Positions 2,081 through 32,628 of a stretch of 64,000 bases of DNA are shown one piece after another. Source of the stretch: Psammoneis japonica (lineage: Eukaryota); assembly GCA_008632985.1 (NCBI GenBank), contig QPGO01000092.1, forward strand, positions 1 through 64,000, in the 5' to 3' direction. Numbering within the stretch: the stretch's first letter is position 1; every line of letters begins with the position of its first letter. The notes under the pieces are model-generated. The model saw only the letters and a program-made list of their open reading frames with translations. It had not been told where the DNA came from and did not search any database. Position numbers and translations under genes: made by a program.

Positions 2081-2524
2081 TACAAAACGGTAACAGAGCT
2101 ATGGGAGAACAACAGCGTTCAGAGATCTTTCGTTTTTTAGGAATTTCTAAAGGCTCAGGCGTTTCAAGCTCAATTTTTTACCTCTTTACTTCTCCGTTTG
2201 GTTGTGAAAGCTTAACGCTTTGCAATTAAAATGAAGATTAATGACAACGTTGTCATTTCATCTCAGTAGCTCAGTACTAGAGCAACCACAACGATGACAA
2301 ATTCAATAACATGAGACGACTCCAGGCCAAGCCAAGGGGTGCAGATACCGGTACTGTAGGGCCCTACTGTAGAACTCGCAGACCGCGAAAACATGTGTTA
2401 GTCTACTTAGTACTTGAAAACGTGATGACAAATTCTTCAATGGAACCGGCTTCTTACGTCATTGGTGTCTTTAACCTTTTTTGACATGCGCACTTGAAAA
2501 ATGACGTCAACTGTTAGTCCTTAA

Positions 2525-5085: not shown

Positions 5086-5153
5086 TCTAGACACCGCTTT
5101 GTTGTTCTGTTTAGTTCTCTGTTAAAAATGCACTTGTTGCGTCTTTCAAAATG

Positions 5154-5475
5154 GTGTGCAAACTAACCGCCAAGCCACCAACCAATCTACATTTCAGTGT
5201 TTAATAAAAGTTATTCAGCACTTTAGGACTCAAAATGGATGATGCACTGCACTGCACTCCTCCACCCTTCACTCTCTCACTTGGTTTCTCTATCTCCATC
5301 TCTCTGACTGCGATTTGTGTGCAAACTAACCGCCAAGCCACCAACCAATCTACATTTCAGTGTTTAATAAAAGTTATTCAGCACTTTAGGACTCAAAATG
5401 GATGATGCACTACACTCCTCCACCCTTCACTCTCTCACTTGGTTTCTCTATCTCTATCTCTCTTACTGCGATTTT
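5154..5475. repeat. Tandem duplication of ~160 bp
   Basis: gtgtgcaaactaaccgccaagcc...ctgcgattt occurs at 5154-5316 and again at 5317-~5475. Confidence 0.9.
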
Positions 5476-11832: not shown

Positions 11833-12339
11833 GCAGGTGTGATGCAAGAACACGGGGAGCCCTCAACTGAGCTTTCTCTGCCCCAGAAGAGCAGGTCAAA
11901 TGCCAAAGGCCTCACAAGCAAGCACAGGCAGGTGGTGCAGCATCTGTGCACCTGTGACCAAGCTGTGTGACACCAGCTGCAAAAAACAACAGGAGGAAAG
12001 AAAAATGCTGTGCCCCTGCTGTTTGGGCAGCTGGCAAGACCGATGCCCCAAAGTTGTGTTTCAGGGGGGAAGCTGCTGAGGGCTGTTGGCACACCAAATG
12101 AATTGAACCAGTGGCTCAATTTTTGTGTGGGTGGGGGGAACACATCACTGAGTGAGATTCCACACTGGCACATTTTCCACACAAACACAAATTCACTGTT
12201 GATTTTTTTTTACACAACAAAAATTATGAAGAAAACAGTTTGCAGACAATTGCAGCATCACATCATCACCTTGTTTTGATGATTGCACAACTGTGACAGA
12301 ATTTATGACACAATGCATGTGAACATTTTTGAACAACAA

Positions 12340-13520
12340 CGTTGAATGATGTCAAAGTTGGTGATTTTCAGCACTGGAAATTTGGTGTTGCACCAAAAAT
12401 TGAGCCACTGCTGGCACTGCCAGGTGTGACTCTGGTGGACAATGATGTGAGACTGGCCCTTTCATCCACCACCACAAACAAATTTGCAGAACCACCCATC
12501 AAACATCCAATGGAGTCTCCATCAAGCAGAACTTTGAAGCAGGCACTCGCGCACGCACTTGTCACACCACCTCATTGACTGTGCAGCTGCTCCAAATTCA
12601 CCACAGCCATCCACAAGGACATGACATGCAAGGTGAAAATGGTGGTGGCCAAGAGGAAAGCAAAAAAAGCATGAGAACACTCTCAAAACTGTCCTCTGCA
12701 CTCCACCCTGCATTGAAGCCTGTGCAGTGAGGCACAGCACCAAAACTGGTGCTTTGTTGTCAGGGCATCCATCTGCACTGAATGTCACCCTTTTCCTGCA
12801 CCGCTGTGTCAATGAGCTCCCCTCACCTGCCAGCATGGGCTTGTGATGGATGCAGCTGCAACAAGTTCTTCATTCAGCAAGCCCTTCAGTGCAAGAAGGG
12901 TGGGCTGGTCATGTCTGGACATGATGAGATCCACCGTGATGAGCTCAGCTGCCCAAAAGCTCATTGGCATTCAAGCCCTCCATGGTGCATGATAAACCTC
13001 TCATGAACCCTGCTGGTTGTGCCTCTGGAAGCCTGGCCACCAACAGTGCAGTCGCCAATGTCAACAAGTCAAGAGATGGTGATCGTGGAGATCTTTCAGC
13101 CAGAGGAGGCTGCCTTGTGGGAAACAGATGTCAACATGGATGTTTGTTGCCAGTGCTGATGCACCACCCCATTTGTCCAAGACCCCAGAACAAGTGCTGC
13201 TGGATCCCTGATGGAGAAAAAGCACAAGCATGTCAAGCCATGCCTTGAGCAATGCCACCATTTTTTGCCTGCAGCGGTGTCATGCTGCAACGGGCTGACT
13301 GGTCAGGAAGCTCAAACTGGCTTGTGACAGACAACTGGAAAGATTTCAAACAAGTGGCAGAGGCCATGTTTGGTTCATCAGTGCAAGGTTCAGCATTGTT
13401 GCAGCTGTGAGGGCAGCTCACTTCTGCCTCAGAGTCAGCTCCAAATGCCCCCCCACTGGGAGGATGGAGCCAGTTCATCTGTGCACTGCTGCCTCCAAAC
13501 CATGACATGCCACCCAAGGA
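12340..13520 (+). mobile_element. Decayed 3' portion of an RLE-encoding non-LTR retrotransposon (CRE-like)
   Basis: Colinear degenerate motifs across frames: CDGCSCNKFFIQQALQCKKGGLVMSGHDEIHRDEL (zinc finger), AFKPSMVHDKPLMNP, GDRGDL, EKKHKHVKPCLEQCHHFLP, KWQRP, ARFSIVAAVRAAHFCLR. Confidence 0.7.
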
Positions 13521-13724
13521 CTCCCATCAAGACACAATGCCATTGACTGGATCCAGGACAACATCCATTCATGATGCTCAAGACAAGCCATGAAACAACG
13601 GAGCTCTGTGCAGGGTCACACACGGAGATGCACGGCTTGAAAATGTGGTTGGCGTGAGTGGCAAACCCTGCCAATGCTGGGTCAACTTTGCTGACTCGGA
13701 CTTGTTGTTGCACGTGCCTCTTCT

Positions 13725-13728
<4 letters not shown>

Positions 13729-13766
<38 letters not shown>
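13729..13766. repeat. (GA)19 microsatellite
   Basis: Direct read of the sequence. Confidence 0.95.
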
Positions 13767-13769
<3 letters not shown>

Positions 13770-14735
13770 ACGGACTTCGAAGGGTGCAAAGCCGATCGCC
13801 AGCTGGGGTTCATTGCAGTGTCAGTTCAGTTGAATGTGCAAATGACCTTGCAACTCCTTGTCAAACAACAAGAAAAAAAGATAGTGATCTTTGATGGAGA
13901 TTCTCATTTGCATCTGTGGTGATGAACGAAACACACGCACTGCCCGTCACACCAGGAATTGCATTTTGGTCGCGCACACGCAGCACACATTGCAAGCGCT
14001 CCTTTGCGAGAAGAAAGAGGCAGGTGGGGTTGTGGCAGCTTCTCTGTTAAAACCTCTAATGACAACTAGCTGTGGCAGCTGGTTACCTGGAAACTCATTT
14101 CATGCCAACTCGCACTTTGGTTGACTGCACAAGTTCATTCTCTCCCTTCTTCTTGCTCTGGTTCCTGGGCAGACTGCAGACGGGCACATGGTCGACATCA
14201 TTTTATGAAGCCATTGAGTGTCAACCAAGTGACAGTTGGAGCACAGGAACTTATCAGGCCTGGATTTCATCCGACGATATGATTCTCCTTCATCACTGAC
14301 GGCTGGCTTAGTTTCCTTCTTGGTCGGTTCCATGGAGATGGCAGTGGTCATTAGTCAGGTCAAAGGGTTCAAAGAGCACGGGCGCCTCAACACCAATGGA
14401 TGCGCGTGTGAGGTTTTGAACAGCAGAGCACTCTCTGAGAACGACAGTTGGTGTGTGTTTGAACTTGACCCTACCTTTTGTGATTGCGATGATGCTGTGC
14501 CGCCACACGCAGGAGCTTTGTTTCAATGAGAGGGCCGCGGTTGGTCAATAAACGATTTCATCACCTTTTTGGCATGAAGTTCTCATGCTTCTGCTCGGTT
14601 CAGTTCGTGCATTGGGGCGGGTGAATGAAACAAAAAGCTCAAATTGATCCGAGATTGTCATTTGAGTTACCTCGAAACGCGTTTCACTGTGATCCTGAAG
14701 TTCACGGATCTCTAGCTAGAGCTCTAGCTAGTTTG

Positions 14736-14975
14736 CGGGAGCAGAGTACAATCTGAATTTAAAATGGATCAGATTAAGTCGTGGGGGGAGGAATCAAAAC
14801 GGAGTTCGCGGATGTCTTTCCTCACTTGTCAAGTTCGTGAATCTTTAGCTGGCTAATGCACGGGAGCAGAGAGCAGAGTTTAACCTGAATTCAAAGTAGA
14901 TCAGAGATTAAGTCGTGGGGAGTCAAAACGGGTTTCACGGCAACTTGCAAGTTCGCGGATATCTTCTCTCACTAG
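14736..14975. repeat. Imperfect ~120-bp tandem duplication upstream of the membrane-protein gene
   Basis: cgggagcagag...tgaatt...gatcag...attaagtcgtgggg...tcaaaacgg appears twice, starting near 14736 and 14861. Confidence 0.65.
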
Positions 14976-15088
14976 TTTTTGCCTTGGTCACAATTCAAGC
15001 ATTGCTTGAGGCCGAAAGTGATACGCACGGGCAACCCTCAATTCTATACCAGGATTGCTCTCCAGTGTGCAAAATTGTCGACCGCAAC

Positions 15089-16834
15089 ATGAAATTCGAA
15101 GGCGTCGACCCAACGCTTTTCAACTTTGCATCCGACGTTGTTGGTCTCGTGATAGAAGTCGCATTGGTGCAAACCATTTCGCATCTATACACTGTCGTTA
15201 TGAGTTGGCATCTCAAGCGGGGCTTCGAAATTCCCATCAAAGCTCTCGGATGGGTTCCCAACGATGCCTGTAATGCTGTAATGCTGCAATGCTCACGTTT
15301 CAGGGTTATGGCATTTTCAGAATCTCTCTACAGGTGTTTGTTCTTGTGTTGCTTTGCATTGTAGCCACCTTTTCGCACCCATTGGCAGACCTGGGACTTC
15401 ACTTTGTCCCCAGTCAGCAGGAAGGACCTGTTGATACTGGTCTTGAATTTATCCACGGAGAACCGCAACCCCCAGCGCATGCTGCAAACGGGTGGCGATC
15501 CAATCAATAATCGGAATCTAATTGCCCCCGCTGTCATTATGCAGAACCCAGAACTGGAAGGAAGTGGCCTGGATATCGTTCGCCAGCAGGTGAAGCTTTC
15601 CTCCTCCTTTGTATGGGCGTGGGAAACCATTGCTCTGGGTGAGTCACCATTGATCGAATCTTTGAGTGATTCTCAAGTTCGGGTGGATGCCCTATGGGGT
15701 GGTTTGCAATCGGTGTATTATGTCGGCCTCAACGGGAAGCCACTGGCACAGATAGACTTGGAAGTACCTCTAAACTGCTCAAGCACAGAAATGGTGACGA
15801 TTGAACAGCAAGAGGGAATAGATTTCTGGTGGGGGGAATCTGGAGTACGATCAACGGCACTTGTCCCGAACTGCACTTTCTCTGCGAGACGAGAGTCAGG
15901 GATCTTTGGCGACACTGTGGGCAAAGCTTCAATCTTGGAAAAAGCCAATATTTACTCGTTTGAGAACAAAAACGTCTTCGTGAAGGTTGGCGAGACCCTC
16001 CTGAACAAAAAATTCTGGGTTCCGCCTGAAGCAAAACGGCTTTCGCGTGATCGCGAAGACTGGAAGAAAGGCCGCTATATCGACGGAGTAGACGCTTTTC
16101 GTGTCGGCAATCAAGAAATTCCTCTAAATTCCGTTTTGCTTGCTTCAGGAAGAGAAGATATTGCTGAGCCGGGAGAGTCCGATCCTACCACGATCGAGCG
16201 TCGCAATTTTTACACTATGGTTGGAGAGGTTAAACAGGGATGGTGCCCGCCACGTCCCTCGCGTGGATTTGTAAACGATTCCACACAATGTGTGGCATTT
16301 CTTGAGCTCTCCTGTGAGACATTTTCCGAAGACTATCTTTCTCCGTTCCACTTGACACCGGCAAAATCAGTCTGCGAGATTATTAACTTTGACTTTGTGT
16401 GGGGCGTAGGATTTCAAGCTGACAGCGAGCTTGTCGCCGTCATTGCGGGGCTGGCCGCAAGAGTCCAACCCAACAGGTTCAACGGCGGCGAGCATCACAA
16501 TTTTATCGTGCACTCTCTTCTCGGTGCGATGTTTGCGCTTGGTACGCTCGAAGAGCGCTCCAGAGTTGAAGAAACTGTCGTCCCAGAAATCAATGGCGTA
16601 TATATTGTCTTCACAGCGCTTCCTGTCACTCTTGCCTTAGTGGGGCTCTTTCTAGCGTTCTTCGGGAAGAAGAAGACTGTTCCCGTTCCCAAAAGCGGTT
16701 GGGAGCTTCTGGTTGTTGGTCGTGAGGAAACTTGTCTTCCGTCCCGCGCTGACAAGAAAGCTAACTTTCCCGACAAGGACTGCAGCCTGATGTTCAAATT
16801 GGACAACGGGATTGGATCGATAGTTAGGCCGTAG
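15089..16834 (+). CDS. Uncharacterised membrane protein (N-terminal and C-terminal hydrophobic segments, Cys-containing middle); this copy has an 8-bp and a 1-bp insertion relative to its duplicate
   Basis: MKFEGVDPTLFNF... from ATG 15089; 476-aa ORF 15404-16834 with TM segment VYIVFTALPVTLALVGLFLAFF; the duplicate at 17230-18680 reads through the N-terminal part in one frame. Confidence 0.65.
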
Positions 16835-16892
16835 TTGTCTTTCTGTGTAAAAGCCCACCATTCATTTTGAAAGAACTTGCACACCTTACAGT

Positions 16893-17230
16893 ATTTCGCC
16901 TTACGCATAGTCAGATTGCTGCTTGAACTCGCACATTTGGGCTTGAGCTAAATCTCAAATCAAGTCTAAATAAAGAAACGTAGGGAGGCTTGTCCCACGA
17001 TCCGAAAGGTAGAAATGATTCTGAGCTATCATTACAATTCTTACGCTTGTAGATAGACTGATACTAGGGGAGCTGCTTGGTCAAGAAGAAAAGCACCATC
17101 ATCCGCAAATAGATGGCCGCAGTTTGGGATGCTGTGAAATTTAGTTTGCGTGTTGGGTGCAGCCACAGCTTTGCAAAAGAACTCTCGGCCCTTGTCAAAA
17201 GAACAAACGTAGTCACCTTCGGGCCAAATT
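16893..17230. repeat. Duplicated fragment of 31492-31828 (3' ends of the convergent 270-aa ORF and alpha/beta hydrolase)
   Basis: Minus strand encodes IWPEGDYVCSFDKGREFF...IPNCGHLFADDG...VSVYLQ, nearly identical to the hydrolase C-terminus; nucleotide match extends through the intergenic region. Confidence 0.9.
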
Positions 17231-18680
17231 TCTACACCAGGATTGCTCTCCAGTGTGCAAAATTGTCGACCGCAACATAAAACTTGAAGGCGTTGACCCA
17301 ACGCTTTTCAACTTTGCATCCGACTTTGTTGGTCTCATGACAGAAGTCACATTGGTGCAAACCATTTCACATCCACACACTGTCGTCATGAGTTGGCATC
17401 TCAAGCGGGGCTTCAAAATTCCCATCAAAGCTCTCGGATGGGTTCCCAATGATGCCTGCAATGCTGCAATGCTCACGTTTCAGGGTCACGGCATTTTCAG
17501 AATCTCTCTGCAGGTGTTTGTTCTTGTGTTGCTTTGCATTGTAGCCACCTTTTCGCACCCATTGGCAGACCTGGGACTTCACTTTGTCCCCAGTCAGCAG
17601 GAAGGACCTGTTGATGCGGTCTTGAATTTATCCATGGAGAACCACAACCCCCAGTGCATGCTGCAAATGGGTCACAATCCAATCAACAATTGGAGTCTGG
17701 TTGCCCCTGCTGTCTTTTTGCAGAACCCAGAACTGGAAGGAAGTGGCCTGGATATCGTTCACCAGCAGGTGAAGCTTTCCTCCTCCTTTGCATGGGTGTG
17801 GGAAACCATTGCTCTGGGTGAGTCACCATTGATCGAATCACATGGGTGGTTTGCAATTGGTGCATTTTGTCAGCCCCAATGGGAAGCCGCTGGTGCAGAT
17901 GGACTTGGAAGTGCCTCCAAACTGCTCAAGCACAGAAATGGCAACAATTGAACAGCAAGAGGGAGTGGATTTCTGGTGGGGGGAATCTGGAGTGCGATCA
18001 AAGGTGCTTGTCCCAAACTGCACTTTCTCTTTGAGACGAGGAGTCAGGGATCTTTGGTGGCACCATGGGCAAAGCTTCCATCTTGGAAAAAGCCAATGTT
18101 TGCCTGCTTGAAAAGAAAAACGTCTTTGTGAAGGTTGGCCAGACCCTCCTGAACAAATTTTTGGCTCCACCTGAAAACGCCTTTTGCGTGATCACGACGA
18201 CTGGAAGAAAGGCCGCTGTGTTGACAGAGCAGATGCTTTTCATGTCGGCAATCAAGAAATTCCTCTAAGTTCTGTTTTGCTTGCCTCAGGAAGCAAAGAC
18301 AAGATGTTGTTGAGCCGGGAGAGTCCAATCCTGCTGCAATCGAGCATCACAATTTTTGCACAACATGGTTGGAGAGGCCAAACAGGGATGGTGCCCATCG
18401 CGTCCCTCTCGCGGACTCATCAACAACTCCACACAATGTGTGGCATTTCTTGAGTTCTCGTGTTGGACTTTTTCCAAAGACCATCTTTCTCTGTTCCACT
18501 TGACACCAGAAGACTCAGTCTGCAAGATTGTCAACTTTGACTTTGTGTGGGGCATGGGATTTCAAGCTGACAGCAAGCTTGTCGCCGTCATTGCGGGGCT
18601 GGCCAGAAGAGTCCAACCCAACAGGTTTGACATCAACAAGCATCACGATTTTGTCGTGCACTCTCTTCTTGGTGAGATGT
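17230..18680 (+). pseudogene. Hypermutated, 3'-truncated duplicate of 15042-16532
   Basis: Colinear alignment; ATG changed to ATA; ~30-bp deletion near 17840; many TA->CA/TG and CG->TG/CA changes (GRYIDG->GRCVDR, ANIYSF->ANVCLL). Confidence 0.9.
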
Positions 18681-18699
18681 GACAAGAAAGAAGTGAAAT

Positions 18700-19960
18700 T
18701 TGTTGTCAGAAGAGCAGGTTGAAAAACTCAAGAAAATTGGATTCGAGTGGTGACCGTTGGAGAAAGAAAAGATCACAAAAGTCATGACAAAGAAAGGCGC
18801 AAAGCCAAAGAAGCAACAAGACAACAAAGATGAATCCTGGAACAAGATGCACACTGAACTTGTCAAGTTCAAACAGCTTCATGGGCACTGCAACCTGTCA
18901 AGGAAACACATGAATCACAAGCTTTGTCTTTGGGTGTGTGCCCAAAGAAGAAACCAAGAGAAAATGATCGATCAATGAATGGCTCAACAAGCTCAAGTCC
19001 ATTGGATTCAAGTGGTTGGAAAGCAATGTGGAAGATTGGAGCTTGATGTGCAAACAACTCGTCCATTTCAAAGAAGTTCACGGGCACTGCAATGTGTCCC
19101 ACAAAGATGAAAATCAAAAGCTGCATCTGTGGGTGCAACGTCAGAAGGACACAAAGCAAGCAACAACAGAAGAAAGAACCAAAAAACTTGAGTCTGTTGG
19201 ATTTGATCTGCCCAAAGACAAGGAAAGGACCCCAAAGATGGCAAGGACAATGAACCAAGTCAATGTCATTTTTCCTTTTTCATGCTCGCATTGCCAATCG
19301 CTTCTGGCACAATTGTCACTTTCTTGACAGAATGCCAAGCTTGAGAAAGACTGGAATGAAATCCTTGGTCAATGCATTGCATGCAAGAAAGCAAAGGATG
19401 CTGACCCCATGAATGTGAAAATGGAGCCAAAACTCTGTGGTTGGTTGCATGGTCAGTGACAAAAAATTCCAGAGGAAAGAGCTGTCCCCTGTTGGGATTG
19501 CGAAACTCAATTCAGCAGGGTTTGGTTGGTCCAAAGAGCAAAAATGGGACAACATGTTTGATCAACTCAAAACACACAAGGAAGTGCACTGAGATTGCAA
19601 TGTTCCAAGCAGGTCTGGCAAACTTGCAAATTGGGTTTTGACACAATGCATTTGCTTCAAGGACAATTTGTTGGATGATGACAGGGCTGAAAAACTGCAG
19701 TCCATTGGATTTGATTGGGAGAGAAAATCTGACATTTTGAACAATGCAGCGGATTCTCCTGAGGTCAAGAATGACGCAGAAGATTCTCCCAAGGTCAACA
19801 ACAGTGCAGCAGATTCTCCCAAGGTTGAGAACAATGCAGCGGATTCTCCCGAGGTCAAGAACAAAGAACAAAGCAGCAGATTTTGACAAAGACAAAGAGA
19901 ACATGGAGAATTGTTGGCAGCACATTTTGGATTCCATTGACAACATTGAACAGGTCTAAA
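18700..19960 (+). pseudogene. Decayed gene with several helicase-associated (HA) domain repeats
   Basis: WNKMHTELVKFKQLHGHCNL...LCLWVCAQRR, WSLMCKQLVHFKEVHGHCNVS...LHLWVQRQK...KKLESVGF, RAEKLQSIGFDW; stops and frameshifts present. Confidence 0.75.
19740..19859 (+). repeat. 30-bp x4 coding tandem repeat (NNAADSPEVK)
   Basis: Four aacaatgcagcggattctcc-like units. Confidence 0.9.
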
Positions 19961-22900
19961 TTGGTGTGTTGAGCCAAGAAGTGGCAAGATTGCAGTTTGG
20001 GGATTGTTTCATGCATTGTTTGGGGAAGAGATTGTTTTGGGTGACAAGTGCAGTGATTTCATTGTTGTGCAGATGCCCGGGAAGCAATGAACAACCTGGC
20101 ACTCAGACTGCTGTTGTGGTTGTTGAGGCACTGCCACGAAACCACAGCAGCAGCAGCAGCAGCAGTTGCACCAGCAGGAGCAGCAGCGCGCCGTTCACAG
20201 CAACAGCATTGGAGCAGCAGCAGTCGAAAACAGGAGCATCCATGTGCCGATCTCAACAATTGTGTCCACTGTCACCACTGCTGCTCCCACTTCTAATGCC
20301 GCTGCTGCTTCTGCTGCCGCAAATGCTGTTGCGACTTCTGTTCTTGCCGCTGCCATCTGCAGACGTTCAGCCAATTCATGCCACAAGTCATCATCCATGT
20401 CAAGAACCTGGTTCACTTCACAGTCATGAAGATCTTCTGAAAATTGCTCTGTCTCCAATTCTTCATCACAGTCCAAGAGAGCCACCTGGTCATGTGCTTG
20501 ATTGTCTTCTTTGTGCTCTGCAAGGCAGAGAACTGGTCGCAGTGGTTCACCTGGATGGGTGGTGGAGTGGTGCTCCTGCCATGACCCAAGACACTCTTCA
20601 CCTGCATTGGCCCTCATGTGAATTCTCTCTTCAACTGTTTTTCTGCTCCAACGTGCTTCTCTGAAGACAGATTGAACATCAAGGGACAGCCACACTCTTG
20701 AACATTCCAGCATTGCCAGAGAATCTTGGACTTGTCACCATTGCATTTGGAGAGACAAAAGTGTTTTAATTCTGTCACAGGAAGAAACTCATTGTCACTG
20801 CATGAACAGTGCCAACATTTCAAATTTTCCTTGCAGTGACCAAGGCAAATGTCCTCACTTGACTTCCATGCATTGATGAAGCAAGGCATTGCATTGAGGT
20901 TGTTTCCCACAAAAGTTGCATCCATGGCCCGCTCAAGAAGATCCAATCACTCAGTGAAGACATTCATCAACATTGCAACCACGCCCATGTGGCCCCCATC
21001 AACTTCATGTGGTGCACCTGCTTTTTCTTTGCCGAGAGAAACTGTTCTGTCATCAATCGTGTGAGCTCATTGTCTCCCATGCCCAAGCATTCCAGAGAGG
21101 ATTTGTTGATCGTGAAATGATTTTTCTTGCTGCACATCTTCAATCTTGCTTTCTGAGTTGTTCTTGTCCTCAACAGCATTCTGCACATGGGATCGTGTTT
21201 GAGGTGGAACTTCAAAGCAAGGTTCATTGAAAGCCTGGCCAGTGCTCTGGCAAAGTTGCAATGGCCACACACTTTCTTGATGAAGATCATTTTGGCGCAC
21301 TTCATCAAGAGCAAAATCTTGAAAAGTCACCTCGGTGATGCTGCACTTCCTTTTGGTGGCTGCAAAATTTCTGGATTCTTCTTCCATGCAAATGTCAAAC
21401 AACTTTGCACACAACGAAATCATTGGATTGCCTGTCATTGCAAAAGTGCTACAAAGGTCTTTCTTTTGGGTGATGGAGTGTTGCTTTGCATTCTCCTTTT
21501 CTTTTTTCTCCTTTGGACGGGTTCCAGTCCCAGACGGAACTCTGTGTGACATTTTGCCCGCAGAATTCTGCGTGCGAGCTCCACTGTAAATTTGTCAAGC
21601 AATGAAAATGTGAATGATCGCCAACAGAAAAAGAGGCAATTTTACGAAAGCATTGGTGTCTCCTCCTTCACACTTGGAGTTGATCCCAAAATGAGACCAG
21701 GCACAAATTAAGACCCGCGTGGGGCGTGGTGCAAAAATGCACAGAATTTTCTGTTGGTGAAAAAAATCAAGAGGCATCGCGTTCAAAACAGCATGATGAG
21801 AGCGTTCGATTGCCACCCTTTTTGCCCCCCAGAAAAATGCTTGGCCCTTGCGGGGCGCATTTGATCTCCAGCACTGAAATCACACATGTTTCTGTGTGGG
21901 TCTTAAATCACCACACCTGCCCATCCACATTGGCTTGTCAGACATTTTGGTTGTTGTGCTGAAACTCATGAACCAACCAGATTTGAAAAAGAGGGGAGGA
22001 TTTTTTTGTGACAAGTTCAATGAGATCTTTCACATCCATGCATGAAAAGTTGCATTCCATGCATGCAGAGAAATGTCAGTGGCTGTTGATCTCAGGTGGG
22101 TCTTGATGTGGGATTGACTCTGCTGGAGTGTGTCATCAACAGTTTGCCCCCGGGTGCATCCTGCAGCTCATTGAAGAACACACCCAGCGCATTTTCATTC
22201 TCACAAATGTTGAAAATGGAAAGCATTTGGCTTCGCAAAACAGGGAGCATGAAACAATTTTGTAGAATGTCACATGCAGAAATGCATGTGCATGACATGC
22301 GACACGATCCAAAAAACTGTTGATGTCACAGTTCAGCAGCACCCGCACAAGGTCCCACCCAGAGCTGGAGTGCATCTTGGTGATTGTCCCAACCTGTTTC
22401 CACAGGATCACTTGCATCAGGGTGTTTGTCCACCGGCAGTTTTGCAAGAAGAGATTCAAACAATTTTTGCCAATCCCAAGCAACCATCATGTTGCAACCC
22501 ATGTCTTCAATGACCTCACATTGAGCAAGTGTCAAATCTGGATGATGTTGTGGTCTGCGGTTTTCAAGCAACGACCTCTTGCCTTTTTTCGCCACCAGCC
22601 TTTGTGAATTTCACAACACAGCACTCCAACAAATCACTGGGACATTGCACATGAGTTTGTTCCAATTGACACATTCGTGCATTCAACAATTTGAACTTTG
22701 CACTGTCTCAGGCGCTCCATGTTCTTCTTCCACCTTTCTTCCCTTTCCAAATTTTCAAAGTCGTTCCCGTCCCAGAGGAGCCCAATGTTGTTGAGACACT
22801 TGACATGCCATGACAACAACCATCAACTGTTGACAGCCTTGGCCCTTCTAATTTTTTTAATGCTTTTGCACATGAAACAAAACAGGTTGCTCTTTTTGAC

Positions 22901-24986
22901 AGCGGATGAGCCGTTTGTTTCCTTTTTGACCACACACAACAACCACAGCAGTTGGGTTTTGCCCGTTTGGGGATTCCCCAAAATGGCAAGGGCAAGGGGG
23001 GAATTGCCTCACCCTTTTGGGGAATGCCCAGGAAATGAGGGTAATTTGGTGGGAAGGAACAACTGAAAGGGGCCAGGGGAAGGAACAAAAAATGAGTGCA
23101 GTGCGACAATTCCTGTCTCATTTTATGTGGGCGGGTGTGCTTTTGAAACATTCAACCAGAAAGCGAAAGCAAAGCCACGCTCTGCCGCCGCCGACCATGA
23201 TGGATGCATTGACAAATCAGCACAAAGCATCCCCTCATGGCAGAGCAAGGGAAGAATGAACATTGTCATTTTAAATCACACATGTTGATGTTGCTGACAC
23301 GCGGCTCCATTTTTGCCTCAGCCTTTGCTCTAGAGCCATTGTGGTTTGCATTTGTGACCACACAACACAAAAAGGAAAAAATGATGCAATGTGTTCTGTG
23401 CGTGAGACAGGTCAAAGGGAAGAACAAACACCATCAATCAATTTGCCATGCTTTCATTGACCATGTGCAGTTCCCATTTTGCCTCATCCTTCACACTGGA
23501 TGCCTTGTGGCTTGCCTTGCTGAATGCATGACAAAAGAGCGATCTAAATGATCCCCTTCATTCTGCACATGAGATGTGTAAATTGGAAGAATGAGGGTGA
23601 CTGTTCAATCCACCATGTTGTTGTTGTTGGCTGTGTGTGGCTTTGCTTTTGCCTTGCCTTTGCTGCGCACCTTGTGGCTTGCATTTGTGGCTGCATGACA
23701 AAAGAAAAACCAACGACTGACGACTCAATCGCACCAGTGTTCTGCACATGTGCAACCACATTTCATCTTGTGTTTTGTGCTGCAGATCCCGCTCAATCAA
23801 TGTCATCGATCACATTGAACGGTGTGTGGTGATTGACAGACAACAGCCAACATAAATGGGGTGCGAACGTGCCATGGCGTGTTGCCCATTTTTGTTGCGG
23901 TCAGTCGATTGTCTGGCTCCAATGTCCCGGCCCGTAGAAGGCACAGAAATGCACGAGAAGGGAAGCACGGGGAATTGCCAATGCACAATTTTTTGTTCAT
24001 GCATGGAGCATGTGTGTGACGAAGTGCAATTTGCTGCAATTCCCTGGGAAATCATGCTTCCCGTGGAAAATCACGGCAAAAGGTGGCAATCCCGGGGAAT
24101 TTTGGGGAATCCTGCAGCAAACCAAACTGAGGGCAACAACTCGATGCAACAGTTGAAGGAGCCAATCCTGTCCACATCCAGCTCAAAAAATTCATTGTCT
24201 TTCCAGCACTCTTTGGGACTCATGCCACAACAGTTGACTTCTTTGTCCTCTTTTTCTGTTTCGCACTCTGACATGTCTTCCAAAGCTTCTGCCACAAACA
24301 AAGTCCCTTGTTTCTTGAACTTTTCTGGGGTGATCCCACGAATCTTCAAACTGTCACAAACAAGCAGCTCTTCTGCTTCAAGCACAAGAAGAGGCTGGCT
24401 TTTCCACTGGGGTGGTGTCAAAGAAGGAGAACTCATGAGATGACATCATGCGCGGTTGTGCTCACAGAACAACCAACAAGCAACATCAATTGCAGCATGA
24501 CTTTTTCAAAAGACAAAAACGATTGTTGACAATGAATGCACTCAGTGCATCTGCTTTGCCTGCTGCAGCAACAGCAGCTCTCCTCTCCTCTCTGTTCTCT
24601 GGTGGCTGCTCTAGAGAGTGCAGCAGAGTGGAGAGTGCCGCACTGCAGCCACCAGAGCAGAGCAGAGAGTGCCAAGAGAATGAAACAAGACAATGGAGCG
24701 AATTCATTGTGACCCTGGTAGATTCTTAGACTTTTCGCTTTTTGTCTCATCAACAACAATTTCTCGTCCAGTGCAGTGCTGCTGGGAACAATGTAAGACA
24801 TGACATTTGGTGCTTTTAAAATTCACTAAAGTGGACATTGTGCAGTTGATGCAGTCATGATTAGAATGACTTGCTGTGGGGCATTTTTCAATGACTTGTT
24901 TGCAGTCATTGCGAACAAACCGAACAACATTGTGTACATTGATGAGTGACGAAATGCTCAAGAAAAGCAAAGAGCGTGGAGAAACA
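19960..24986. other. Hypermutated domain 3, middle part: unidentified decayed coding remnants, mostly minus strand
   Basis: TA-depleted; protein-like but Tyr-free fragments at 20614-21552, 22092-22595 and 24071-24436; no family recognised. Confidence 0.5.
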
Positions 24987-24991
24987 ACTTG

Positions 24992-25175
24992 TGCAAGATC
25001 CAGCTTGAGATGACTTGACAAAAGTTGTGGGAGAACCAAGAAGAGACCCAATCAGCGCAATTGCTGATCGGAACTGACTTCCAATGGCTTCCTGAATGTC
25101 CAATGTGTCAGTTGACACACGTGTGTCAGAGAGGGCACACTCGGTCATAAAGCGCACATGTGCCTGTCTCATTCA
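24992..25175 (-). repeat. 3' LTR (hypermutated copy)
   Basis: Aligns end to end with 30523-30704; adjacent to the PPT. Confidence 0.92.
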
Positions 25176-25286
25176 CTCTTCCCCTCCATGGTGCAAGGAA
25201 CACGCACACCATTGGAACCACTTGACTAAAATTCAAACCCAATGTGCACGCACGGAGAAGGGAACCCAGATGTTGGGAAGAAACCC

Positions 25287-28200
25287 TCAACTCCGATGCG
25301 GCACCACGCGGCGAATGTCAATTCGCTCAATGACGTGCGGTGCTCGCAGCACCGAAACAGTCCCGTTGGCGTGGACTTGTGCAATTCGAAACGGACCACA
25401 GGCTCGTTCTTCCAACTTTGAAGGATCCACCGACTTGATTGATGCATCTTGACCAACTGGATGATCGCAGGAATGGCGCTTCGCATTCTGTCGTCGCAGG
25501 TTCTCGTCGATCAACACTTGTCGGTTGGCTTGTGTCGCAGCAAGGTCGGAGACAACAGGCAAGTCCAAAATCACATCGCATTGAAACACTGGAGCTCCAC
25601 TTGAAACACCCACAGACCTTGAGTGGGAGCATCGCAAAGCACAAGAGGCTGCAGCAAGGGCATCGTCCACAATCTGCTTGGCCTGTTGAACATTTAAAGG
25701 TGGGTCAGCGACAACCACAGTGCGCAAGATGTTAGCTGCTGTCTGGTGCATTCATTCACAAACAGAGTTGGCTGCAGGATTTTGAGACGTCGTCGGCGCA
25801 TCAGCAACACCCGCTTGATTTAGCAGCATTTGGAACTCCCAACCAATGAATTCTCCACCATTGTCATGGATGCATCGATTCGGTCTGGGACAACAAGCCA
25901 ACCAAAGATTGTGAAACTTGTTGGTCACATGCTGAGAAGTTTTGTCATCAGCGCGCACGAGTTCAGTCAATCCAGTGACAGCATCAATGCAAGTGAGAGC
26001 GCTGAATTCAATCTCTTGGTCTTGAATCGGCATTTTCCACGGTCCAATGAGATCAACCGCTGCTTCCATCCACAGAGCTAAAGGTGCTTGACGTTGAGGC
26101 AATTCTCCACATCCAGGGCCCAGTTGTTTAAATCGTTGACACGCATTGCAAACAAATTCGTTACAACGTCGACGCAATGCAGGATGACACACATGAGTCC
26201 GAATGCTTTCATGCAATCGCACAACTCCACAATGGCCCAACACGTGATGGTGCCATGCAATGGCATCCGGCAACAACGCAGCAGGAATGCAAATTTTCCA
26301 GGCTCCAGATGGATCATTCAGATGCAAACAATGACAAATCAGGGGGTGATGATTCACAATCTTGACCACAAATTGCTGCGGATTTTGTTGTCTTTGCTGG
26401 TTCAGTTGGAGGTCTTTGAACTGGAGCTGTTGTGTCCTTGGCATCACAGTGGGGTTCGGCATTTCGTCCAGCGTCGGGTGATTCAAAAAGCATTCAAACA
26501 ATTCAGGCTCATCAAGCAGAGAGGAAAAGGCGGCGCGAGACTCATCAGAAGGATCAATGGGAGCACGGCAACACTTGAACCTGCAAGCGCCCAACTCCAA
26601 ATCTTCCTCTTCCTTGGCCCTGCTTAGTTCTTTGGAATCCAACTTTCAAAATGAACAATTTTTCCTTTGCGTTTGCTGCTTGGCCCAAGGCTCTTCCCCT
26701 CCAAAGGCGGTCCATGCATGGGAGACGAGAAAAACAATCGGCGAGCACGTCATCCTTGCCTTTGACATGTTTAAAGGCAGGCGCGAAATCTTTGAGGAAC
26801 AGTCGCCAACGAAGGACGCGTTGTGCATTCAAAGCATGAAAGGTGAGATTTTTGTGATCAGTGTGAACAGCAAAATCAGCACCAAGCAACATTGAGCGAA
26901 ATTCCTTGAAGCACATGATGACGGCCAGGAGTTCTTTTTCCATTGTTGAGCAATTGTGTTGAGCCGCCGAGAGCTTCTTAGACCAATGCGCCACAGGTTT
27001 GCCATCTTGAATGACAGCGGCGCCCATCTGGCAGTCTGATGCATCGGTGTAGACATGGAATGGTGGGTTGTGGTTGGGGTGGGCCATCAACGCCATCACT
27101 GCCTTCTTCTCCTTGAACGCTTTCTGACATGATTCTGTCCATTGGAAATGACTCTTGCCTGTCAATTCAGTCAGAGGTGCAAGCAGGTGAGAACGGCAAG
27201 GCCACATGTTACGATGGCAGGTTGCTGCACCGAGAAACGACCGGAGCTGAGCAGTGTCCCGTGGAGGTTGCATTCGTGGGATCGCCTCGACCTTCTTTTT
27301 CCACAGTTTGGTGCCAGTTGGAGCAAGCCAATGCCCTGGAAAATCGGTTTCTTGGACACACCACTCGCATTTCAACGGGTTGACTTTCAAACCATTCTCC
27401 TCAAGACGATGTGGCACCTTGTCAAGACGAGAGAGATGGCAATCAAAGTCAGTGTCAAATGCGCCAATGTCATCAATGTAAGTTTCAACATCCAAACCAT
27501 GCAGGATCTTTTCAATGATGGACTGAGCAATGTCTGGAGCTGGCTTCAATCCCACAGCCACACGACAACACTGGAATTTCCCGCACGGAGTTGCAATTGT
27601 AGCGAGCTCCTTGCTTTCATCGTCCAACTCCAAATTGCAGCAGAACACAGTGAGATCCAGTTTCGTGAAGAACTTGTAGCCCGCTCTCCGCTGCAGCACA
27701 TCTTGAACAACCGGTGAAGGACACACTTTTCGCTTGAGGACCTTGTTGAGCTCCCGAAAATTGGATGCCCATCGCACTCGGCCATCCTTCTTCGGAGTGA
27801 CAAAGGTGCCAGCTGCCCATTCCGCAGGTCCACATGGTCGCAGTGCGCCAAGATTCACCAAATGCTTCAACTCCTTTTTGAATGCTTCTTCATTGACTCC
27901 AGCAACAGGAAATGGTTTTGAGTGACAAGGAATGGCATTTTCATCCACTTCAAGGTGCACCTTTTCATGAGGACAGTGCCCCAAAGTTCCATCAAACAAA
28001 GTTGAATGTTTTTCCAACACCGTCAACAGCTTCTTCTTTTGCTCTTCTGTGAGATGGTCTAAGTTCCGAACCACTTCCGCTGGATCCGTTGCTTCATGCT
28101 TGGCGTCGAGCACACAGTTGTCACATCCATCATCGCATCCATGGTCCGACTCGTCTTCATGATCTTCATCAAATTCATCCATTCGATCTAAAGCCACATG

Positions 28201-28755
28201 CCAATTGCAGGATTTGGACCAATGACGTGGTTCCTTCATTGGGATCACACGGTCCAGCCATCGCAGTGTCCTCGTGTCGCAGTTCAGGTTGAGGCCAATC
28301 TTGTCCAAGAAATCTTGACCCAAAATGATGTCACACGCACACGGAGCATCGAATGCGTGAGCCACACAGCCGTCAATCCTCCCAGTTTTGTTGAATTCCG
28401 GCAACACGACATCACTCAAGGCCACCCAACGACCCAATTGGAAAGGACCTGCAACGGTTTGAAAAGCTCGGACTCCATGTTCGTCAACAGATGGCGCGGC
28501 TCCTCGAGGCAAAACTTGGGACGAAATCACTGTGTGAGAACCACCCGAATCGAACAAAACACGCATCACACGATTCGACTCATGCCGTTGGATTGATTTT
28601 GCAACAAGTGGTGCAGATGGGACCAATGTGGTGCACGAGACTTGCGAGCCCATTTTGGGGAGAGGAGTGTCATGTTCAAATGCATCTTGATCAAACACAT
28701 CCCCCTCTTCATTCACGCAATTTTCTGTGGTGTTTTCAAATTCAACAGGCAACAA
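25287..28755 (-). pseudogene. Gypsy pol remnant: protease, reverse transcriptase, RNase H, integrase
   Basis: RVLFDSGGSH (PR), PKKDGRVR and YIDD (RT), TDASD and EKELLA (RH), HHHVLGH..C..C, VDLIGP, HDNGGEF, NSVCE and GPF (IN); frameshift near 26600 and in-frame stop at 25752. Confidence 0.9.
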
Positions 28756-28899
28756 TTCATCAGGATTTTCAAAACAATCAAAAGCAAAACATTCATCATT
28801 TCATTCAGGCAAAACACAATCATTTTCTTCAACAAATGCTTCTCTCACAGGCAATTGGGAGCACTCAGCTCCGGAGCATTCAGCTCCTTCTTCTCAGAA

Positions 28900-30200
28900 C
28901 TGCCAAGGAAACTGCCCGTCCAGCTGAAACCTCACCACACCTCCGCATCATGGAGGGCCTCGTCCGATCACATCGAAATGGTGCACATCACCACCAGGAG
29001 CTTCTCAAGCCTGGTTGTCATTGTTCACATTGTCTGCTTGAGCAGCACATCCGTCGGCCTGTCCTTGGCCTCCACGGTTGTTGTTTTCATTGCAACAATG
29101 TTGACCACCACCTTGGTTGCCATTGTTGTTTTGATTTCCGTTGTTTTCATTGTGACAATGTTGACCACCACCTTGGTTGCCATTGTCACTTTGATTTCTG
29201 TTGTTGTTGTTGCAATGGGTGCCACGACCTCCTTGGTTCTGGCTGCCACGACCACCAAAGCATCCACCGCCTCCACGGCCTTGACCACGGCCTCCTTGGA
29301 AACGACCTCCGCCTCGACCTCCACCGCCACGGCCTCCTCCTCGACCGCCACGGTTCTGAGGCCCACGACAGTTGGGGTTGTTTGGATTGTCATGACACTG
29401 GCCCCACACATGTCTTCCATGGTGCCACAGGACCGGACACGGATCACCTGCCTTCGGTTGGCCCTTGCCATCCTTCTTGTCACGGTTGCCCTTTTTGTCA
29501 CTGGAGTTCCCTCTGTTGCCATTGCTGGACTTGCGTTTCTTGTTGTCTTGACCATCGGCAAACACCTTCTCGTTGCTCATGCAGGCTTGGATGTCCACCA
29601 TAGAATCTGCAACGAGGTTCTTGCCCGCACGAATGCAGGGCTGCTGCCAGGTCAAAGGAAAGGTGCAAAAGATGACATTTTTCTGCTCCTGCTCTGTAAG
29701 TGCAGGAACGGTTCCAGGCAAACGGTCAGCATGACGAAACAACATTTCCATGCAATCAATGTGAGTTCAGATTCTGCTGAGTGAGGCTTTTTGCAAGCAG
29801 GCAAATGCATCTTCATTGTGTCGCGAGCTGTCGGTTTCACGCAGTGCAAACAACAGGCTGAGACAGCCTGATCAAATCGAGCTGCCGTCCGTTGATTCTG
29901 TTGGATGCCCGCGGCAACATTCTGCCATTTTGCTTCCGCAGTTCCTTGGAGACAATCCTCAAAAGCATCAAACAACTCTGTTCCGGCATCATAATCCAGC
30001 TGTCTTGCCACCTTCCGGAGCCTGTCCTCCACGTGCAACAATGATTCAATTCCATGCTCTCCTGTGAAAATGGGACACAGTTTTGAAAGTTCAGCACCAT
30101 CATCAAAGGTTTGAGTGAGCTTCACTTCCTGCAGTTCAGAATCCACGAATTTGGTTTTACATTCAATGCACACTTTCTCCAAGGCTTCTTGACACATGGC
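28900..30200 (-). pseudogene. Gypsy gag remnant with zinc-knuckle-like motif, RGG tract and 60-bp x2 repeat (29081-29200)
   Basis: ORFs 29652-30287 and 29005-29751 linked by a frameshift; CPVLWHHGRHVWGQC followed by RGGRGG; lies between the 5' LTR and pol; ends approximate. Confidence 0.75.
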
Positions 30201-30522
30201 GATGAACAATTTCAGCGATCGAACAATCAACAATCCACAAGACAAACGAAATGAAACGTTCCCAATTGATCCACACAACGAGAACAATCAACAACCAAAC
30301 AACAACGAATTCAAGAGCAGCAACACGAGATTCACGTTCAAACAAACGCTGCTCCGAATCACCAATTTCACGAGCACAATCACGCTGCGATTCTGATCGA
30401 CTTCGAATGAAATTTTCTGCACGAGCTCGCAAATAAATTTTCTCTCTTCTCGATGACACTCTTCGCGTTGTCATAAATTTGATAATGTAATGAACAAGCT
30501 ATAACAACGACTGTAATTACAG

Positions 30523-30704
30523 TGCAAGATCTAGCTTGAGATGACTTGATAAAAGTTGTGGGAGAACCGAGAAGAGACCCGATCAGCGCAATCGCTGATC
30601 GGAACTGACTTCTAACGGCTTCCTGAATATCTAATACGTTAGTTAATATACATATATCAGAGAGGGCACACTCGGTCATCAAGTACATGTGCCTATCTCA
30701 TTCA
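30523..30704 (-). repeat. 5' LTR (largely unmutated copy)
   Basis: Aligns with 24992-25175; retains TA and CG sites; followed by TSD ACTTG. Confidence 0.92.
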
Positions 30705-30769
30705 ACTTGGTACTTTCTCCGTGATAAGACACAAGACACAAGACGCAAAGCACCGGTACCACAAGCAAC

Positions 30770-31582
30770 ATGAGCGACGTCAAGAAAGGAGAATACGAAT
30801 CTGCCTTTGACATCTATCCAGATTTGGATCTAGTGGAGCCAGTTTTGGAGCCAATGCCTGACTATGAAATTGTCAACCGATTGATGCGACGTACAATGAA
30901 AGAAAGGAACGACACTTTCAGAGAAAATCTGAAGAGAAATTACGACTTGCAAGAGGTGTTTCTATTAGTATCTGATCCAAACAATGAGATAACTTTAGAG
31001 AGGCTGATGACTGACAGATTGTTGCTGTCTGGAATCAAGAGATTTGAGGAAGAGTTTGTGAACATAGTGGAGTTTTCCATTCGTCAATTGGAAGAAATGA
31101 AAGATTTGAGCGAGCGTGGCCTCCTTGTCAATGATGCAATGGTAGAAGCAAGCAACTTGTGCTTTCTCGTAGAAGAAGGGGAGATGCCGATGTCTTTTTT
31201 TCGAGCAGACGTTCAAGTCAGGAGACTGTACAAATTTCTAGAAAAATGGAACTCCACGTCCATGGATGTGCTGTTGAACAAAATGGACAAATGGCGAAAG
31301 ATTCAGAGAGGTCAATTGACACTCGACAAAAACGAGGAACTGCCTTTCCATTTTCTGAGACCATTTGACATTCAAATTGTCACTCCAATCGAAGCAGGGA
31401 GAGAAGTCATGGAGGAATCTGAAGCGAAAACAGAGGTCGAAGCTAGGGCCCTAGGACACTTGGATCAGCCAATGAAGATGAGGAAATTGGCATTTCGCCT
31501 TAAGCATAGTAAGATTGTGCTTGAACTCGCACATTTGGGCTTGAGCCAATCTCAAATCTATGGTCTAAATAAAGAATCGTAG
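30770..31582 (+). CDS. Hypothetical 270-aa charged, probably helical protein
   Basis: Clean ATG-initiated ORF with normal composition; no recognised domain. Confidence 0.65.
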   Translation: MSDVKKGEYESAFDIYPDLDLVEPVLEPMPDYEIVNRLMRRTMKERNDTFRENLKRNYDLQEVFLLVSDPNNEITLERLMTDRLLLSGIKRFEEEFVNIVEFSIRQLEEMKDLSERGLLVNDAMVEASNLCFLVEEGEMPMSFFRADVQVRRLYKFLEKWNSTSMDVLLNKMDKWRKIQRGQLTLDKNEELPFHFLRPFDIQIVTPIEAGREVMEESEAKTEVEARALGHLDQPMKMRKLAFRLKHSKIVLELAHLGLSQSQIYGLNKES

Positions 31583-31638
31583 GGAGGTTTGTCCCACAAT
31601 CCGAAAGGTAGAAATGACTCTGAGCTCGCTTACAATTC

Positions 31639-32628
31639 TTACGGTTGTAGATAGACTGATACTAGGGGAGCTGCTTGGTCAAGAAGAAAAGTACCATCAT
31701 CCGCAAATAGATGGCCGCAGTTTGGGATGCTGTGAAATTTAGTTTGCGTGTTGGGTGCAGCCACAGCTTCGCGAAAGAACTCTCGGCCCTTGTCAAAAGA
31801 ACAAACGTAGTCACCTTCGGGCCAAATTATCAAGCGTTCCGCATCACCCGACGGATCAAGGTCCTTGGTGCAGAGGAACATGGGATCTTCATCATTCAGG
31901 AACGTGTACATCATGGAGCGATAATGGTTGGATGGCGTGGTCTCGAGCTGTTCCCGATACACACCTTCAAGAAAGAACTTTGGAATTGGGTCCTTCTTCT
32001 TGTGATTGGGCGTACCCATATCACGAAAACAGGTCTTGACATCGGCACGGCTTTCGAAGCAAAAGTGATTTTTTCGGTCGTTTACAAAATCATCAACGAA
32101 TTGGTCACTCAGGCATGCCCGTATTGCAGGAGAAACAAGGACTACCCTGTGGATCTTGACGCGCGGCTCTGGATGATGCTTCAAAAAGTACACCAGTGCG
32201 CCCCCCAAGGAATATCCAACCATGTGGCATTCTTCAACGTTTACAGCCTCCAGAAAGTCAAAGGCCATTTGCAAAATCTCGGCTTGCGAAGCGTGCTGAT
32301 AGGAATCTGAAAACGCGCGCTGTTTGTCACTTCCATGTCCCGGCAAATCTGGAGCCAAGATACGATAGGAGTCGCCCAAATTCAGGGCCGTGACAAAGGC
32401 CGCAAAATTCTTGGCTTCGTCCGTCATACCGTGAAAGAAAACAATCGTAGTTACTTTTCCTTTACTATTTTTGGGTTCGCGTTCATAGTAATGCACGGGC
32501 AACCCATTTCGTCGCAAAACGACCGTCTTGGGGACCAACTGAGCTTCCTTCAAAAGCTGGCTGCTGGCCAACCGAAGGAGTCTTCGACCCACTGCAGCTT
32601 CGACACGTCGAGGGACGACTCGCACCAT
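31639..32628 (-). CDS. Alpha/beta-fold hydrolase (lipase/esterase-like)
   Basis: FHGMTD oxyanion motif, PDLPGHG, nucleophile GYSLGG, C-terminal IPNCGH. Confidence 0.9.
   Translation of the reverse strand: MVRVVPRRVEAAVGRRLLRLASSQLLKEAQLVPKTVVLRRNGLPVHYYEREPKNSKGKVTTIVFFHGMTDEAKNFAAFVTALNLGDSYRILAPDLPGHGSDKQRAFSDSYQHASQAEILQMAFDFLEAVNVEECHMVGYSLGGALVYFLKHHPEPRVKIHRVVLVSPAIRACLSDQFVDDFVNDRKNHFCFESRADVKTCFRDMGTPNHKKKDPIPKFFLEGVYREQLETTPSNHYRSMMYTFLNDEDPMFLCTKDLDPSGDAERLIIWPEGDYVCSFDKGREFFREAVAAPNTQTKFHSIPNCGHLFADDGTFLLDQAAPLVSVYLQP

Follow-up and report, generated by a model that had tools for sequence, protein, structure and literature searches.

Near-complete loss of TA dinucleotides from a retrotransposon island of the diatom Psammoneis japonica: a saturated case of TpA hypermutation

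The stretch of DNA analyzed here (the window) comprises 64,000 nucleotides of the diatom Psammoneis japonica (GenBank assembly GCA_008632985.1, contig QPGO01000092.1, positions 1 to 64,000 of the forward strand) and carries on its minus strand, at 24992-30704, a dead copy of a Ty3/Gypsy long terminal repeat (LTR) retrotransposon, most of which lies in DNA that has lost nearly all of its TA dinucleotides. A self-comparison of the window revealed a direct repeat (24991-25175 and 30522-30704, 87.6% identity), and alignment together with reading of the termini placed the 3' LTR at 24992-25175 and the 5' LTR at 30523-30704, both on the minus strand. The LTRs run from TG to CA, and the sequence ACTTG, read directly at 24987-24991 and again at 30705-30709, forms a perfect 5-bp target-site duplication around the element. 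Since the same duplication is present on either side, both LTRs come from one insertion and were identical at integration. A probable polypurine tract, GGAGGGGAAGAG on the sense strand of the element, adjoins the 3' LTR at 25176-25187 (minus strand), as suggested by its position and composition.

The pol region of this degenerate element has the order protease, reverse transcriptase (RT), RNase H and integrase, and is collinear in tblastn with the whole of a 1142-residue relative (P0001) at 58-60% identity. Its first part is a 748-codon open reading frame (ORF) at 26554-28800 (minus strand) with only 3 Tyr codons and with Pfam matches to RVT_1, RT_RNaseH and RT_RNaseH_2; the DSGG motif, retained in the alignment with P0001, suggests that a protease domain is also present. 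The integrase part (25287-26645, minus strand) is formed by two ORFs, 25752-26645 and 25287-25751, which share a frame and are split by a TGA at 25752-25754; its Pfam matches to Integrase_H2C2 and rve are weak, and it is 58% identical to residues 682-1141 of P0001 (tblastn). The tblastn frames switch from the RT ORF to the integrase frame near 26650-26700. In BLASTP, pol showed up to 69% identity to its relatives over residues 250-748, and the named relatives include proteins of Pseudictyota dubia and Cyclotella meneghiniana. Two overlapping ORFs upstream of pol (29005-30287, minus strand) are presumed from this position to represent gag; they gave no Pfam match that would point to a gag with a zinc knuckle.

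The element occupies the right part of a domain of about 13 kb (17280-30430) which contains 53 TA dinucleotides compared with 901 expected from base composition, and in which the observed/expected ratio (O/E) was 0.36-0.72 for CG and 1.4-1.7 for TG and CA. Two further blocks of the window showed the same depletion: 7500-14000 (O/E of 0.03 for TA and 0.14 for CG), which has no recognizable domain, and 2500-5000 (0.05 for TA and 0.25 for CG). Over the three blocks the TA O/E was 0.03-0.06, against 0.46-0.60 in ordinary parts of the window, the TG and CA O/E was 1.4-1.9 and the CG O/E 0.14-0.72; TA counts per 500 bp were 10-30 outside and 0-4 inside the blocks. Loss of CG varied with the block (O/E of 0.14 in the second block, 0.72 in the Gypsy element) whereas loss of TA was uniform (0.06 in the Gypsy element), indicating that two processes can be separated.

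The original prediction, made on the region 25287-28755, held that tyrosines conserved in Gypsy pol have been replaced by Cys or His in the course of TA loss. The minus-strand ORFs 26554-28800 and 25752-26645 encode all seven motifs that it quoted, and the YIDD motif, which it listed as spared, was indeed kept, as seen both in the translation and in the alignment to P0001. Tyr made up 3 of the 1199 codons of the three pol ORFs (0.25%), with Cys at 3.2-6.1% and His at 4.5-5.1%; the median Tyr content of 270 relatives was 3.55%, and the first 30 relatives had about 2% Cys and about 3% His. An alignment of 50 full-length relatives gave 600 conserved columns (occupancy of at least 80%, consensus of at least 60%), 25 of them with a Tyr consensus. 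The element still has Tyr at 3 of these 25 columns and has Cys (11), His (10) or Phe (1) at the others, so that Tyr was kept at 3/25 columns compared with 473/575 for the other conserved residues (Fisher p = 2.3e-13); Trp was kept at 15/15, Gly at 39/41 and Lys at 32/34. The relatives themselves had Cys at two of the 25 columns only, in 1 of 50 proteins each, and His was rare among them except at two variable columns (16/50 and 7/50). Six of the seven quoted motif columns were 86-100% Tyr in the relatives. The column of the seventh, VHTDH, held 25 Tyr, 13 Phe and 8 His among the 50 proteins, and this motif would be weak evidence on its own.

Other residues were affected in a manner consistent with the same changes. 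The least kept after Tyr were Ile (16/29, with 9 changes to Val and 2 to Thr), Val (20/32, with 7 to Ala), Met (9/13, with 3 to Val), Asn (17/24, with 4 to Asp), Thr (23/30, with 6 to Ala) and Arg (35/46, with 4 to Cys, 3 to His, 2 to Gln and 1 to a stop). The neighbouring bases agree with a change of TA to TG or CA: all 15 codons with a second-position T>C change now read GCA, CCA, TCA or ACA, compared with 24 of 100 retained NCN codons that end in A (p = 1e-8), and T precedes 18 of 22 first-position A>G changes as against 58 of 141 retained codons with a first G (p = 4e-4). Departures from the consensus were then classed by whether a single TA>TG/CA or CG>TG/CA step accounts for each, and 10 intact related elements from metagenomes, treated by the same procedure, served as controls. 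TA-type departures amounted to 54 of 124 in the element and 23 of 1007 in the controls (p = 3e-39), and CG-type departures to 16 of 124 and 28 of 1007 (p = 5e-6). The 53 departures of other types were not above the control range (54-140).

The prediction had also stated that the element was inactivated mostly by missense changes while long ORFs persisted, and this agrees with the about one frameshift and two in-frame TGA codons found in the 1151 codons of pol by comparison with P0001. In the standard code, A>G and T>C changes never turn a sense codon into TAA, TAG or TGA, and among CG changes only CGA>TGA can do so. The ORFs therefore persist because A>G and T>C create no stop codon; of the two stops in pol, that at 25752-25754 sits on a consensus Arg column and is exactly a CGA>TGA change. 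Stop density over all frames was 23-28 per kb per strand in the erased DNA and 32-38 in ordinary DNA, with TGA rising. Since stops were only modestly fewer, the length of the pol frame follows from the kind of mutations and not from a general scarcity of stops. The copy shares the protease-RT-RNase H-integrase order, the TG...CA LTRs and the 5-bp target-site duplication with diatom Ty3/Gypsy elements, and differs from them in about 70 hypermutation-type missense changes at conserved columns, together with the frameshift and the two TGA codons.

The direction and timing of the changes were determined from the two LTRs, one of which lies inside and the other outside the depleted domain. At the 14 TA sites of the outer (5') LTR the inner LTR, which has a single TA left, has CA at 8 and TG at 6, so that 14/14 sites were converted; 5 of 8 CG sites are TG or CA in the inner LTR, and the two LTRs differ at 23 positions in total. 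Since LTRs are identical at insertion, the difference at 14/14 TA sites shows that TA was lost after integration, that is, the erasure acted on DNA in place.

A second comparison was provided by a duplicated sequence at the left side of the domain. Copy a (15042-16532, plus strand, found like copy b by self-comparison) is of ordinary composition, with 43 TA and 84 CG, and overlaps an open 489-codon ORF (15365-16831, plus strand) that lies in normal DNA and gave no Pfam match; copy b (17230-18680, plus strand) is hypermutated and has 6 TA and 36 CG. The 43 TA of copy a correspond in copy b to 17 TG, 16 CA and 5 kept TA (33/43 converted), and 50 of its 84 CG to TG or CA. In the reverse comparison, 5 of the 6 TA of copy b are shared with copy a and 1 differs. 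The direction TA to TG/CA claimed originally was thus borne out by the LTR pair and by the paralog pair as well as by the neighbouring bases in pol. The 6 Tyr of the duplicated part of the ORF have become 3 Cys, 2 His and 1 Phe, and the duplicate inside the depleted region (17145-18680), in which 81 of 372 codons compared encode a different amino acid, is a pseudogene damaged by hypermutation.

The paralog pair also revealed the specificity of the process. The A>G rate per strand was 0.40 when the 5' neighbour was T, and 0.05, 0.06 and 0.02 when it was A, C and G, respectively; the C>T rate per strand was 0.30 at CG and 0.02-0.04 in other contexts. Sites that are neither TA nor CG differed by 4.4%, and the pair showed 127 transitions and 27 transversions. 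In ordinary DNA (14487-15604) the window and the second haplotype differed by 18 transitions and 16 transversions (the 34 best-supported differences; 370 further ones are spread over an 18-kb stretch). Conversion of TA reached 80-100% of sites while other sites diverged by 2-4%. The process is thus directed at the TA step, and flanking bases have a secondary influence on it. Both strands were hit equally, as shown by the numbers of Tyr>Cys and Tyr>His changes (11 and 10) and by the TG and CA outcomes in the paralog pair (17:16) and in the LTR pair (6:8). Strand-coordinated clustering of conversions is a sign of a processive single-strand deaminase; a hand count found 14 runs among the 33 ordered TG/CA outcomes of the paralog pair compared with about 17.5 expected, which is not significant.

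The TA sites that survived were not a random sample. A hand tally of the block cores (2500-5000, 7500-14000 and 17800-29500) gave 66 surviving sites, or 132 strand-views; A was the 5' neighbour in 9/132 of these and in 629/2546 of those in ordinary DNA, and T in 62/132 and 529/2546. Contexts TTA or TAA made up 50 of the 66 surviving sites and 483 of 1273 sites in normal DNA, and ATAC and ATAT were absent and ATAG found once. Such a bias suggests that the mutator prefers certain flanking bases. Each of the three Tyr codons left in pol is a TAC that follows C or T. Since these codons, YIDD included, stand in the refractory flank context, their survival needs no selection.

The limits of the 13-kb domain do not follow those of the element. 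The domain is bounded, with edges graded over about 0.5-1 kb. On the left it begins with copy b, whose first 530 bp contain 4 of the 5 kept TA, and its right edge lies inside the Gypsy element, about 270 bp in: the number of TA rises from none at 28190-29600 to four at 29601-30433 and to eight at 30434-30522, beyond which the 5' LTR was spared altogether. Non-element DNA makes up the left part of the domain (17230-24990) and is equally erased. These results show that the erasure belongs to a chromosomal domain and not to the element. An ORF adjoins the spared 5' LTR, with its start at about 30770, and open chromatin at this ORF may be what stops the process there.

The domain is enclosed in a larger island flanked by a 340-bp direct repeat (16893-17230 and 31492-31828, plus strand, 94% identical), which has retained a normal number of TA in both copies, 15 of them shared. 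A contig of run X2 joins position 16937 to 31563 with 26 other letters between them, omitting 14,625 bases, and the break falls between the two copies of this repeat. In run X1 the depth was 38.5 in single-copy parts of the island and 55-82 in the flanks, and the flanks show a second haplotype at half depth. The island (16938-31562) therefore appears to be hemizygous, present on one haplotype. The public run X1 contains 44% of the sampled words of the element; a k-mer contig of 3553 bp from it (depth 38.5) matched 18065-21617 with 0 differences, and further exact pieces of 668 and 938 bp fell in the erased zone. Since the k-mer contigs are exact, an artefact of noisy reads is excluded. Summed X1 contig depth over the Gypsy element was 1835-2809 compared with 38.5 in neighbouring DNA, a value which may point to a multi-copy family but is not a copy number. 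At 21212-22413 the summed depth was about 22,000-25,000 compared with 38.5 nearby, with many joints and with loose ends at 21643 and 22339, and this segment of the island has the look of a repeat present in very many copies. No RNA data containing the element were listed among the public runs sampled by element words.

The composition of the element is not shared by its relatives. From the best 80 matches of a metagenome scan, a choice that favours intact copies, 78 related loci were kept; their TA O/E was 0.45-0.95, with 0/78 below 0.45, and they had 28-85 TA per kb compared with 16 TA in the 3469 bp of 25287-28755 (4.6 per kb). The original prediction would have been in difficulty had active relatives carried Cys or His at the same positions; the relatives almost never have Cys at the Tyr columns, and the 78 loci are TA-normal. 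On the other hand, four of the 270 related proteins (P0127, P0164, P0165 and P0055), from NCBI, ENA and JGI records with contigs of up to 123 kb and about 50-56% identical to pol, had 0-0.8% Tyr. Cys or His stood at 17/21, 10/14, 8/13 and 14/19 of their Tyr-consensus columns, respectively, whereas four control proteins kept Tyr at 16/19, 18/19, 14/18 and 19/20. Judged from these translations, the same footprint is present in other element families and possibly in other organisms.

The comparisons within the window show the spectrum and direction of the changes, their action in situ after integration, their strand symmetry and their limitation to a domain, and the process that left them was very probably a post-integration, domain-limited one which turned nearly every TA into TG or CA on either strand and, more slowly, many CG. 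In pol it changed Tyr codons (TAY) to Cys (TGY) or His (CAY); its action on NTA codons gave V>A, L>P, L>S and I>T, on TA spanning two codons I>V, M>V, T>A and N>D, and on CGN R>C, R>H, R>Q and one stop. About 70 missense changes at conserved positions thus destroyed the protein, and its frames stayed open. A low TA content native to the element family, or selected against TA or UpA through codon usage or RNA stability, might be proposed from the TA O/E of about 0.5 in normal parts of the window and 0.45-0.95 in the relatives. We consider this hardly credible, since values of 0.03-0.09 are far outside the range of the 78 relatives, invariant residues were destroyed, non-coding DNA was affected alike, and both the LTR and the paralog comparisons show that TA was lost in place. 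The same comparisons make it extremely unlikely that the changes arose before integration, by ADAR-like A-to-I editing of RNA or by error-prone reverse transcription. The 5' U preference of ADAR-type enzymes, described in the accessible part of a preprint (bioRxiv 10.64898/2026.01.13.699255), would fit the TA context, but the LTRs of one insertion differ at 14/14 TA sites, unless gene conversion later replaced the outer LTR, the non-element DNA at 17230-24990 is equally erased, the edge of the erased zone falls inside the element, and both strands were equally hit. An artefact of sequencing or assembly, such as long-read base-calling errors at modified bases, is very unlikely. CG and TA could both carry modifications and the window does contain a scaffold gap of 162 N; the exact X1 contigs (3553, 668 and 938 bp) nevertheless reproduce the erased zone, the changes obey coding logic in a 5.7-kb element that is alignable to relatives throughout, and four unrelated database proteins have the same Tyr>Cys/His pattern.

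The chemistry of the post-integration process is less firmly established than its footprint. The CG step would correspond to deamination of 5-methylcytosine. For the TA step we infer, rather than observe, that the process is enzymatic and aimed at silenced mobile-element chromatin, and that, as has been proposed for Bigelowiella natans, a deaminase acting on DNA turns adenine into inosine, which is read as G. The same erasure of a domain could be produced by attack on thymine, for instance if an enzyme oxidized the T of TpA and the product mispaired with G, or, in a variant of this explanation, as a by-product of adenine or thymine modification that serves as a chromatin mark and not by a dedicated deaminase defence. 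T-side chemistry yields the same symmetric products (11 and 10 in pol, 17:16 in the paralog pair), so that the counts do not distinguish which base was attacked, and the flank-biased survivors point to a sequence-reading enzyme of either kind. We regard thymine chemistry as unlikely though well worth keeping in view, adenine deamination being the only published proposal for a TA signature in the literature available to us. Besides the equivalence of the products of thymine attack, several points weigh against the main reading. None of 32 ORFs of at least 130 amino acids from 2400-5100, 7400-14100 and 14100-25000 matched Pfam at E <= 0.01, and only one of the three erased blocks has an identifiable mobile element. 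The evidence covers the erased blocks and the one copy of the family in the 64-kb window, and X1, which may be the assembly's own read set, is not a fully independent control. In Phaeodactylum tricornutum, mutation accumulation showed CG to be most mutable, with a GC>AT bias, and TpA is not mentioned in the accessible part of that report (PMC6604790).

The closest known case is that of B. natans, for which the accessible part of the preprint by Mettrop et al (bioRxiv 10.64898/2026.01.13.699255) proposes an adenine deaminase as the cause of TpA hypermutation. In mutation-accumulation lines, 210 of 211 mutations in integrated giant-virus DNA and 20 of 20 in virophage DNA were A>G or T>C, all of these on TpA and at rates about 1000x background, and genes low in TpA were enriched in reverse transcriptase and DDE domains (same source). 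The two systems are alike in the conversion of TpA to TpG or CpA according to strand, in the foreign or mobile origin of the regions affected and in the sparing of the rest; B. natans also has clusters poor in TpA and rich in CpA and TpG. As far as the preprint text available to us goes, they differ in host, a chlorarachniophyte and thus a rhizarian as opposed to a diatom, a stramenopile, and in target, which is integrated virus in B. natans and here an LTR retrotransposon with neighbouring non-element DNA in a hemizygous island. The TA O/E is nearly saturated here (0.03-0.09) and 0.45 in the nucleocytoplasmic large DNA virus (NCLDV, giant virus) insert of B. natans; CG loss and a domain edge that cuts through the element are additional features of the diatom locus. 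On the other hand, B. natans offers measured de novo rates and the diatom a historical footprint only.

In fungi, repeat-induced point mutation (RIP) changes C to T mainly at CpA and thus creates TpA. Its ascomycete form resembles the process described here in that repeated or mobile DNA is inactivated where it sits by closely spaced transitions in a particular base context, with some spill-over into adjacent sequence and with frames littered by missense changes. RIP was rejected as the cause, since TA was here destroyed and not created, with CpA and TpG enriched (O/E 1.4-1.9), and a single copy of a duplication was hit: RIP mutates all duplicate copies, whereas copy a keeps 43 TA and 84 CG and copy b has 6 and 36. 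RIP also readily makes stop codons, which TA erasure cannot. That RIP causes C>T is likewise stated in the Discussion of the B. natans preprint (bioRxiv 10.64898/2026.01.13.699255). Diatoms have DNMT4 enzymes related to the fungal RIP factor RID, of unknown function according to the accessible part of the P. tricornutum DNA methyltransferase paper, which also describes methylated transposable elements in diatoms (PMC9998398); theirs would be a cytosine and not a TA signature. Decay of 5-methylcytosine at CpG resembles the CG>TG/CA changes at 50/84 sites of the paralog pair and 5/8 of the LTR pair, but accounts for the smaller part of the damage, with 16/124 departures in pol compared with 54/124 of the TA type, and an O/E in the Gypsy element of 0.72 for CG and 0.06 for TA. 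Hyper-editing by ADAR and hypermutation by APOBEC are similar in that deaminase-type, neighbour-dependent transitions inactivate retroelements; these enzymes act on RNA or on the cDNA of replication intermediates, with strand bias and within the element, whereas the changes described here are post-integration, symmetric and domain-wide.

A literature search for reports of TpA, RIP-like or other hypermutation in diatoms found none, and only the B. natans preprint matched. The diatom island is thus a saturated case of a TpA hypermutation so far reported, in the literature accessible to us, in one other alga. We lean slightly towards the broader view that diatoms have an active chromatin-domain defence which erases TpA in transposon islands, the same as or convergent with that of B. 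natans, widespread in the stramenopile, alveolate and rhizarian (SAR) supergroup, a counterpart of RIP with the opposite chemistry, and of which P0127, P0164, P0165 and P0055 would be further footprints. If the pattern is genome-wide, TpA-specific hypermutation of mobile DNA would have a second and independent occurrence among eukaryotic lineages. Compared with that of B. natans as described in the available text, the footprint here is far cleaner: it is saturated and sharp-edged, and the LTR pair, the paralogs and the hemizygous island serve as its own controls. The identity of the enzyme would become testable in diatoms, since gene knockout has been done in P. tricornutum, as reported in the accessible part of PMC9998398. 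A TA O/E below 0.1 with an excess of TG and CA, or pol genes without Tyr, provides a computable marker for searching genomes and metagenomes. For annotation, the results call for caution, since a long ORF with much Cys and His in an erased region is mutational debris and not a gene.

The blocks at 7500-14000 and 2500-5000, which showed much stronger CG loss and a low AT value (0.68), may be older or more heavily methylated debris. Just outside the block at 2500-5000 lies a tandem duplication of about 160 bp (5154-5316 and 5317-5474, 95% identity). A scaffold gap, the 162 N mentioned above, is found near 60.2 kb. Host genes of ordinary composition are present at 47843-54836 (plus strand), where several long ORFs encode an acetyl-CoA carboxylase whose central part is 58% identical to that of Attheya sp. 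and 56% identical to that of Seminavis robusta, in keeping with a diatom host, and 55450-59676 (minus strand) carries what we take, by the look of its translation, to be a MutS/MSH6-like gene.

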